A stretch of DNA of 6,510 nucleotides from Escherichia coli (GTDB taxonomy: Bacteria; Pseudomonadota; Gammaproteobacteria; Enterobacterales; Enterobacteriaceae). The notes under the pieces are model-generated. The model saw only the letters and a list, made by a program, of their open reading frames with translations, was not told where the DNA came from and ran no database searches. Every line of letters starts with the position of its first letter. Positions within the stretch are counted from its first letter, which is position 1. Of the stretch, positions 3,380-6,510 are shown in pieces. Location of the stretch: NCBI RefSeq assembly GCF_003334335.1, contig NZ_QOWQ01000075.1; one strand, 5' to 3'. The position numbers were made by a program, and so were the translations under genes.

Positions 3380-6300
3380 ATGGGTAAAGGAAGCAGTAAG
3401 GGGCATACCCCGCGCGAAGCGAAGGACAACCTGAAGTCCACGCAGCTGCTGAGTGTGATCGATGCCATCAGCGAAGGGCCGGTTGAAGGTCCGGTGGATG
3501 GATTAAAAAGCGTGCTGCTGAACAGTACGCCGGTGCTGGACAGTGAGGGGAATACCAATATATCCGGCGTCACGGTGGTGTTCCGGGCCGGTGAGCAGGA
3601 GCAGACACCGCCGGAGGGATTTGAATCCTCCGGCTCCGAGACGGTGCTGGGTACGGAAGTGAAGTACGACACGCCGATTACCCGGACCATCACGTCGGCA
3701 AACATCGACCGTCTGCGCTTTACCTTCGGTGTGCAGGCACTGGTGGAAACCACCTCAAAGGGGGACCGGAATCCGTCGGAAGTCCGCCTGCTGGTTCAGA
3801 TACAGCGTAATGGTGGCTGGGTGACGGAAAAAGACATCACCATTAAAGGCAAAACCACCTCACAGTATCTAGCATCGGTGGTGGTGGGTAACCTGCCGCC
3901 GCGCCCGTTCAATATCCGGATGCGCAGGATGACGCCGGACAGCACCACAGACCAGCTGCAGAACAAAACGCTCTGGTCGTCATACACCGAAATCATCGAT
4001 GTGAAACAGTGCTACCCGAACACGGCACTGGTCGGCGTACAGGTGGATTCGGAGCAGTTCGGCAGCCAGCAGGTGAGCCGTAATTATCATCTGCGCGGGC
4101 GTATTCTGCAGGTGCCGTCGAACTATAACCCGCAGACTCGGCAATACAGCGGTATCTGGGACGGAACGTTTAAGCCAGCATACAGCAATAACATGGCCTG
4201 GTGTCTGTGGGATATGCTGACCCATCCACGCTACGGCATGGGGAAACGTCTTGGTGCGGCGGATGTGGACAAATGGGCGCTGTATGTCATCGGCCAGTAC
4301 TGCGACCAGTCAGTGCCGGATGGCTTTGGTGGCACGGAGCCGCGCATCACCTGTAACGCTTACCTGACCACACAGCGTAAGGCGTGGGATGTGCTCAGTG
4401 ATTTCTGTTCGGCGATGCGCTGTATGCCGGTATGGAACGGGCAGACGCTGACGTTCGTGCAGGACCGACCGTCGGATAAGGTGTGGACCTATAACCGCAG
4501 TAATGTGGTGATGCCGGATGATGGCGCGCCGTTCCGCTACAGCTTCAGCGCCCTGAAGGACCGCCATAATGCCGTTGAGGTGAACTGGATTGACCCGGAT
4601 AACGGCTGGGAGACGGCGACAGAGCTTGTTGAAGATACGCAGGCCATTGCCCGTTACGGTCGTAACGTCACGAAGATGGATGCCTTTGGCTGTACCAGCC
4701 GGGGGCAGGCACACCGCGCCGGGCTGTGGCTGATTAAAACGGAGCTGCTGGAAACGCAGACCGTGGACTTCAGCGTGGGTGCAGAAGGGCTTCGCCATGT
4801 ACCGGGCGATGTCATTGAAATCTGTGATGATGACTATGCCGGTATCAGCATCGGCGGGCGCGTGCTGGCGGTGAACAGCCAGACGCGGACACTGACGCTC
4901 GACCGTGAAATCACGCTGCCATCCTCCGGCACCACGCTGATAAGCCTGGTTGACGGACAGGGGAATCCGGTCAGCGTGGAGGTCCAGTCCGTCACCGACG
5001 GCGTGAAGGTGAAAGTGAGCCGTGTTCCTGACGGCGTTGCCGAATACAGCGTGTGGGGGCTGAAGCTGCCGACGCTGCGCCAGCGCCTGTTCCGCTGCGT
5101 GAGTATCCGTGAGAACGATGGCGGCACGTATGCCATCACCGCCGTGCAGCATGTACCGGAAAAAGAAGCCATCGTGGATAACGGGGCGCACTTTGACGGC
5201 GACCAGAGCGGCACGGTGAATGGTGTCACGCCGCCAGCGGTGCAGCACCTGACTGCCGAAGTCACCGCAGACAGCGGGGAGTATCAGGTACTGGCCCGCT
5301 GGGACACGCCGAAGGTGGTGAAGGGCGTGAGCTTCCTGCTTCGCCTGACCGTGACAGCGGACGATGGCAGTGAGCGGCTGGTCAGCACGGCCCGGACGAC
5401 GGAAACCACATACCGCTTCAGGCAGCTGGCGCTGGGGCGTTACATGTTGACGGTCCGGGCGGTAAATGCGTGGGGACAGCTGGGCGATCCGGCGTCGGTA
5501 TCGTTCCGGATTGCCGCACCGGCAGCGCCGTCGCGGATTGAGCTGACGCCGGGCTATTTTCAGATAACCGCCACGCCGCATCTTGCCGTTTATGACCCGA
5601 CGGTACAGTTTGAGTTCTGGTTTTCGGAAAAGCGGATTACCGATATCAGGAAGGTTGAAACCACAGCGCGCTATCTTGGCACGGGGCTGTACTGGATAGC
5701 CGCCAGTATCAATATCAAACCGGGCCATGATTATTATTTTTACGTTCGCAGTGTGAACACCGTTGGCAAATCGGCATTCGTGGAGGCTGTTGGTCAGCCG
5801 AGTGATGATGCATCCGGTTATCTGGATTTTTTCAAAGGCGAGATAGGGAAAACCCATCTGGCTCAGGAGCTGTGGACGCAGATTGATAACGGTCAGCTTG
5901 CGCCTGACCTGGCTGAAATCAGGACGTCCATTAAGGATGTCAGCAATGAAATCACGCAGACCGTCAATAAGAAACTGGAAGACCAGAGTGCGGCAATTCA
6001 GCAGATACAGAAGGTTCAGGTTGATACAAATAATAATCTGAACAGCATGTGGGCTGTGAAGCTGCAACAGATGAAGGACGGACGCCTTTATATTGCGGGT
6101 ATCGGTGCCGGTATTGAGAATACGCCAGCAGGAATGCAGAGTCAGGTGCTGCTGGCGGCAGACAGGATTGCGATGATTAATCCTGCGAATGGCAACACAA
6201 AGCCGATGTTTGTTGGTCAGGGCGATCAGATATTCATGAACGACGTGTTCCTGAAACGCCTGACGGCTCCCACCATTACCAGCGGCGGTAATCCTCCGGC

Positions 6301-6510
6301 ATTTTCCCTGACACCGGACGGGCGGCTGACGGCGAAAAATGCCGATATTAGCGGTAACGTGAATGCGAACTCCGGGACGCTCAACAACGTCACGATTAAC
6401 GAGAACTGTCGGGTTCTGGGAAAACTGTCCGCCAACCAGATTGAAGGCGATCTCGTTAAAACAGTGGGCAAAGCTTTCCCCCGGGACTCCCGTGCACCGG
6501 AGCGGTGGCC
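3380..6510 (+). CDS. J: Central tail fibre / host specificity protein J (3'-partial; continues beyond window end)
   Basis: ATG at 3380 preceded by GGAG (3368-3371, 8-nt spacer). Frame is open without a stop for >1040 codons to the window end. N-terminus [34 protein letters not shown]... and long internal stretches match lambda gpJ as I recall. Not in the ORF track, presumably because no stop codon falls in the window. Confidence 0.95.

Follow-up and report, generated by a model that had tools for sequence, protein, structure and literature searches.

Gene J of bacteriophage lambda encodes a trimeric tail-tip or central-fibre protein that attaches the phage to an outer-membrane receptor. In lambda the gene is placed after I and before lom and stf, and its product, gpJ, is represented by PDB entries 8iyk, 8k35 and 8xcg. 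A second described system that bears on the present locus is the shadow open reading frame (ORF), of which the one opposite dnaK is an example: antiparallel ORFs in frame -1 are common, are codon-aligned with the host gene, meet stop codons only opposite TTA, CTA or TCA in that gene, owe their length to the host gene's avoidance of rare codons, have fast-evolving translations, are sometimes called as proteins, and have been judged unlikely to encode essential proteins (bioRxiv 10.1101/724807). We analysed a 6,510-nt stretch of Escherichia coli DNA (the window), in which a long plus-strand frame beginning at 3380 is overlain by six minus-strand ORFs. The region is almost certainly the ordinary tail-tip gene J of a lambda-like E. 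coli prophage, cut by the edge of the window, and the minus-strand ORFs are non-coding by-products of J.

The plus-strand frame is open from the ATG at 3380 to the end of the window (3380-6510). Plus frame 2 (position mod 3 = 2) contains no stop codon in its 1043 codons between 3380 and 6508, whereas the other two plus frames contain 63 and 50; the J frame is thus open far beyond chance. In the source genome (L011) the frame ends at a stop at window-equivalent 6857-6859, 349 nt beyond the window, giving a protein of 1159 amino acids (aa), so that the window holds codons 1-1043 of 1159. A plus-strand ORF from 3380 is missing from the program-made ORF list because that list leaves out ORFs running off the window. 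The sequence-only reading had attributed the omission to the want of an in-window stop and had staked this beforehand on the frame being stop-free to 6508; both points hold.

The identity of the frame (3380..6510, plus strand; tip attachment or host specificity protein, central tail fibre) follows from its open frame, its homology to gpJ and its annotation by the Prokaryotic Genome Annotation Pipeline (PGAP). The translation matches the lambda tip attachment protein J (PDB 8iyk_J) with E=0 and 2079 bits, residues 1-835 aligning to 1-835, plus a second stretch, and it matches phrog_31, 'central tail fiber J', also with E=0. The gpJ series of Pfam domains is present in the same order as in lambda, FNIII-A_GpJ, Phage-tail_3, Ig_J, Ig_J_second and Phage_Tail_Tip, with E-values from 2e-42 to 1.6e-30. 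At the DNA level J is 94-96% identical to annotated J genes of lambdoid phages. The first 35 residues are those of lambda gpJ. PGAP names the gene gpJ (WP_000515674.1) in E. coli GZ04-0086, with its end at window-equivalent 6859 and with no pseudogene flag, and the synteny H-M-L-K-I-J-lom-stf is given by the window ORFs upstream and by the PGAP annotation of the source prophage. Immediately 5' of the J ATG, at 3368..3379 on the plus strand, the sequence reads GGAGTGTGAGGA, which is Shine-Dalgarno-like.

Substitution patterns and codon usage point to the same frame. Between J and the corresponding gene of locus L001, substitutions at codon positions 1/2/3 number 2/2/32, 6/7/48 and 2/3/13 in three segments, an enrichment at position 3, and diversity at the three positions within codons 1-311 is 0.014/0.006/0.103; the plus-frame J protein is under purifying selection. 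Codon-usage scores trained on genes H to I are +0.33 bits/codon for J, +0.31 for the sense frame and +0.10 for the codon-aligned antisense frame, the best of the minus frames, and are negative for all other frames. The scoring of plus frame 2 against the minus frames that the sequence-only reading had proposed as a check therefore favors J.

These data also bear on whether J is a decayed pseudogene of which the open frame is a remnant. Its 3' end lies outside the window, many E. coli prophages are defective, and some database J alleles carry an internal inversion (see below), all of which would be compatible with decay. In contrast, the near-identical source prophage carries an intact 1159-aa ORF annotated as gpJ and unflagged, with lom and stf following; its last 323 aa align with the receptor-binding regions of solved gpJ structures (9wca_J, E=1e-119); and the substitution patterns are those of purifying selection. 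For the sequence as given the pseudogene explanation is refuted, and we regard it as having practically no chance of being right.

The six minus-strand ORFs listed in the sequence-only reading are all present at exactly the positions it gave, and they fall into two geometrical classes. The ORFs at 4310..6067 and 3980..4225 are codon-aligned with J, so an antisense stop is possible in their frame only opposite Leu TTA or CTA or Ser TCA. The larger, 4310..6067, has 585 aa when counted from the first TTG of a longer stop-free stretch, of which it is the start-to-stop part; counted from the first ATG, at 5857, it would have 515 aa. The smaller, 3980..4225, is a spurious ORF of 81 aa lying between the stops opposite TCA 3980 and TCA 4310. 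The other four occupy a frame in which third positions face J third positions. These are the spurious ORFs at 3364..3753 (129 aa, extending past the J start, with no PHROG match and a codon score of -0.23), 3796..3996 (66 aa, codon score -0.16), 4834..5265 (143 aa, nested within 4310..6067 in a different frame, with no PHROG match and a codon score of -0.06) and 6226..6471 (81 aa, codon score -0.36). With 30 stops over 1043 codons in their frame, ORFs of this length (66-143 aa) are to be expected and are unremarkable.

The 585-aa figure understates the feature. A stop scan of the codon-aligned antisense frame shows that the stop-free stretch occupies 4313..6510 on the minus strand, 732 codons within the window. 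In the source genome the frame next meets a stop opposite TCA 6512-6514, just two bases beyond the window edge, which makes the true stop-free stretch 733 codons. Its boundaries are set by J codons. Within the window six plus-strand J codons, between codons 42 and 311 (3503..4312), form antisense stops: TTA 3503, TCA 3755, TCA 3860, CTA 3869, TCA 3980 and TCA 4310. These bound the ORF at 3980..4225 and the 3' end of that at 4310..6067. After codon 311, none of the 53 Leu and 43 Ser codons of J within the window is TTA, CTA or TCA. Leu in J is nearly always CTG, and Ser is mostly AGC, AGT, TCC or TCG; this usage leaves codons 312-1044 without any TTA, CTA or TCA, and the 733-codon antisense stretch is open because J lacks all three codons between codons 311 and 1045. 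The geometry is that of the shadow ORFs described above, from which the present one differs in nothing essential; it is unusually long (733 codons) because J is itself unusually long.

The sequence-only reading had ascribed the antisense ORFs to GC-rich coding DNA and had described their translations as Arg/Pro/Gly/His-rich and of low complexity. The first explanation is incomplete, as J is only ∼57% GC and the specific cause is codon alignment together with the lack of TTA, CTA and TCA. The compositional description fits loosely for the 585-aa ORF, in which Arg, Pro, Gly and His together make up 31.6% of residues and Arg is the most frequent (12.6%), and it does not fit the other five, where the same sum is 21-26% (20.2% in J) and which are rich in Ser, Val, Pro, Thr and Leu. 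The description as low-complexity was mistaken: the composition entropies of the minus-strand ORFs are 3.70-4.03 bits, compared with 4.13 for J, and none is truly of low complexity.

The length of the open antisense stretch was compared with two null models. When synonymous codons were shuffled within J, the longest open antisense stretch had a median of 376 codons and a 95th percentile of 594, with P(≥732) = 0.008; when codons were drawn from the usage of genes H to I, the median was 267 codons and P = 0.002. A very long antisense ORF is thus expected here, and the observed one lies in the 1% tail, which is unremarkable for a case picked post hoc.

Four observations nevertheless count against regarding the antisense frame as a simple by-product of J. 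The 733-codon stretch exceeds 99.2-99.8% of the synonymous shuffles; the J gene of lambda (DE3) has a similar open stretch of 705 codons; the antisense frame is weakly positive on codon usage, at the +0.10 bits/codon given above; and it has been called as a protein by annotation pipelines in dozens of E. coli and Shigella assemblies. Because of the top-1% rank among the shuffles and the similar stretch in lambda, a purely neutral model does not fully predict the length. The likeliest source of the excess, although not a proved one, is a local bias against Ser and Leu codons ending in A, combined with the post-hoc choice of the longest case.

The first three of these observations could also be taken to favor a reading in which the 585-aa minus-strand ORF, or a shorter version from the ATG at 5857, would be a real overlapping gene and J codons 312-1044 would be kept free of TTA, CTA and TCA by selection; bioRxiv 10.1101/724807 cites experimental work that claims such antisense genes in E. 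coli. Conservation of the frame was evaluated in a set of J genes comprising 10 from annotated phages and 80 from IMG/VR (89 distinct sequences including that of the window). Codons 312-1043 are free of antisense stops in 31 of the 81 close relatives (≥89% identity), which could be taken to favor an overlapping gene. In the remaining 50 the frame is interrupted by at least one antisense stop in these codons, at 23 distinct sites, and all seven distant relatives carry antisense stops in the same interval. J genes at 73-81% identity have such stops at codons 330, 468, 565, 610, 718, 831 and 943, among others. Four-fold sites of J have a diversity of 0.109 over codons 1-311, opposite which the antisense frame is closed, compared with 0.171 over the open interval, codons 312-1043; because diversity is not lower in the open part, the synonymous sites of J are unconstrained by a second frame. 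The J protein has an amino-acid diversity of 0.090, compared with 0.198 for the antisense translation, which diverges 2-8 times faster than J. These results show that the antisense open frame is neither conserved nor constrained.

Signals of function on the minus strand were equally lacking. The large antisense ORF has no Pfam match even at E≤10 and no match in PHROG or PADLOC. No Shine-Dalgarno-like motif precedes any of the first seven candidate starts (6067, 5857, 5728, 5581, 5248, 5191 and 5152), and promoters are not enriched on the ORF, with three promoter-like sites against 2.9 expected. PGAP annotates no minus-strand gene in the GZ04-0086 prophage, including opposite gpJ. A literature search found no lambda-specific antisense data.

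Matches do exist in the protein database, where at least 52 clusters at the 90% identity level, holding up to 152 member sequences each, match the antisense ORF. All are E. coli or Shigella entries named 'hypothetical' or 'uncharacterised', vary in length and lack any antisense-specific Pfam domain, and the homologs are all confined to J loci of E. coli and Shigella. Two clusters that were located (P0005 and P0006) each fall entirely within a gene called as J that runs on the other strand. Because the located clusters are the antisense of called J genes, these database matches are not independent evidence, and the deposited antisense 'proteins' appear to be the same shadow-ORF artefact, a form of database contamination. 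The sequence-only reading had allowed that protein homology would speak for a minus-strand gene; such homology is found, but in form only, as the located matches fall inside J.

A real overlapping gene, raised by the length in the 1% tail, is strongly disfavored by the lack of conservation, constraint and translation signals, and we consider it very improbable. It is likewise most unlikely that the stop-free frame, which is common to lambda over J codons 312-1044, represents a young lineage-restricted protein or the raw material for one, expressed opposite the late operon. More generally, we see hardly any prospect that the antisense frame encodes something functional, and we infer from the sequence comparisons that the antisense frames are probably not translated into anything functional. 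The claim that the minus-strand ORFs are artefacts is borne out by the absence of conservation, constraint, family matches and Shine-Dalgarno sequences. We conclude that they are non-coding shadows of J, an ordinary finding of a kind already known.

A separate question is whether the open frame is a side-effect not of drift but of selection on J for efficient translation, acting against the rare, slow codons TTA, CTA and TCA in its central and distal part, J being a highly expressed late structural gene. GC content at third positions (GC3) is 0.75 and A at third positions (A3) is 0.08 in codons 312-700, as compared with 0.71 and 0.13 in codons 1-311, and close relatives average 1.21 TTA, CTA or TCA codons in 312-1043, where roughly 4-7 would be expected from tail-gene usage by our hand arithmetic. 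The same argument has been made for frame -1 antisense ORFs opposite highly expressed genes (bioRxiv 10.1101/724807). On the other hand, the A-ending share in other four-fold families is equal across the two parts of J (0.110 versus 0.117), so A-ending codons as a class are not avoided in the open part, and with only 16 TCN and 52 CTN codons at risk the deficit amounts to a few codons. Selection of this kind is possible but doubtful.

The value of identifying the antisense ORFs as shadows of J is practical only, and the understanding of phage biology is unchanged. A gene cut by the window edge drops out of any list of ORFs that run from start to stop, which leaves a 585-aa, weakly gene-like decoy in its codon-aligned antisense frame. 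The stop-free frame also lets an internally inverted J allele, certainly non-functional, read as a single long ORF. In the deposited J alleles P0045-P0048 (L101 4582-5136) the segment equivalent to window 4961-5515 is inverted in place; it spans 555 nt, or 185 codons, and by eye it is flanked by a 7-bp inverted repeat, AATCCGG/CCGGATT. A repeat search reported no inverted repeats at 4961/5515. Since the antisense frame is in codon register with J and free of stops, the inverted J is still one long ORF, and gene callers report an inverted 'J' protein with 185 junk residues in its middle. The inverted segment may be either a real inversion or an assembly artefact.

The J of the window is not lambda-like throughout its length. 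Over codons 1-835 its amino-acid difference from the J of lambda DE3 is 1-6%, whereas codons 836-1043 (5885-6510) differ from lambda J at 37% of residues. The J gene of phage PPompW_EH1992 shows the reverse pattern, with codons 836-1043 97% identical to the window J and the first 835 codons 21-26% different. Because its codons 836-1043 diverge from lambda yet match PPompW_EH1992, J is a mosaic gene. The full-length protein is 1159 aa, as compared with 1132 aa for lambda J. Its C-terminal receptor-binding domain lies outside the window; in the source genome the last 323 aa match 9wca_J (E=1e-119), 8xcj_Z and 8iyk_J 832-1131. The C-terminal receptor-binding part is thus nearest to PDB 9wca_J, 'A8 gpJ', and not to lambda J, and for this reason the predicted receptor specificity may differ from LamB.

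The junction immediately upstream of J also departs from lambda. The gap between I and J is 60 nt in lambda, whereas here a 477-bp moron lies between the two genes, and it is of greater interest than the antisense ORFs. This insert (2903-3379), which is absent from lambda, has a GC content of ∼0.40 and a GC3 of 0.24. It contains a small plus-strand ORF of 112 aa at 2975-3313, whose product carries a predicted lipoprotein signal, MNKTILFCTIIALTGC; a hairpin-plus-T terminator comes after the ORF, at 3337-3357 on the same strand. The protein has a lipobox, LTGC, two further conserved Cys residues and an invariant MGGYDVVLD motif. It matches phrog_914, which has no assigned function, with E=7e-33; searches of Pfam, NCBIfam and PADLOC gave no match, nor did tblastn against 50,697 phage records.

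Homologs of the moron protein with 50-60% identity occupy other gene junctions within lambda-type tail modules: they follow K in three loci (L015-L017) of a cluster named Klebsiella variicola by its source, and in three others (L018-L020), named Enterobacter cloacae complex, they lie between T and the tape-measure gene. The moron is carried by 337 of 5426 complete E. coli genomes, among them O104:H4 2011C-3493. The insert looks like a mobile moron. In Stx and other O157-type lambdoid phages (L003-L008), I and J are separated by an unannotated gap of ∼240-340 nt, and insertions seem to recur at this junction. A Foldseek search with the AlphaFold model of the moron protein (predicted local distance difference test score, pLDDT, 84) returned only one weak resemblance, to Flpp3, a lipoprotein of Francisella (E=6e-3, template-modelling score (TM) 0.52), which is too weak for any function to be assigned. 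Our guess is that the protein might be an envelope lipoprotein expressed from the prophage for exclusion or host fitness.

As read from the ORF list and its translations, the plus strand of the window carries the 3' portion of a lambda-type tail module. Upstream of the moron are the 3' end of the tape-measure gene H (25-591), M (588-917), L (917-1615), K (1620-2363) and I (2300/2261-2902). The prophage of E. coli GZ04-0086 and those of many other strains match the window except at two positions, 30 and 1845, neither of which falls in J. The PGAP order in the GZ04-0086 prophage is tape measure, tail protein, L, C40 peptidase, tail assembly protein, hypothetical protein, gpJ, Ail/Lom and tail fibre. 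From the sequence, I may begin at either of two starts. The longest ORF, which opens with the ATG at 2261, shares ∼100 nt with the end of K, read in another frame, and the PGAP start at 2300 corresponds to a 64-nt overlap. In the lambda DE3 record the K/I overlap is annotated as 103 nt.

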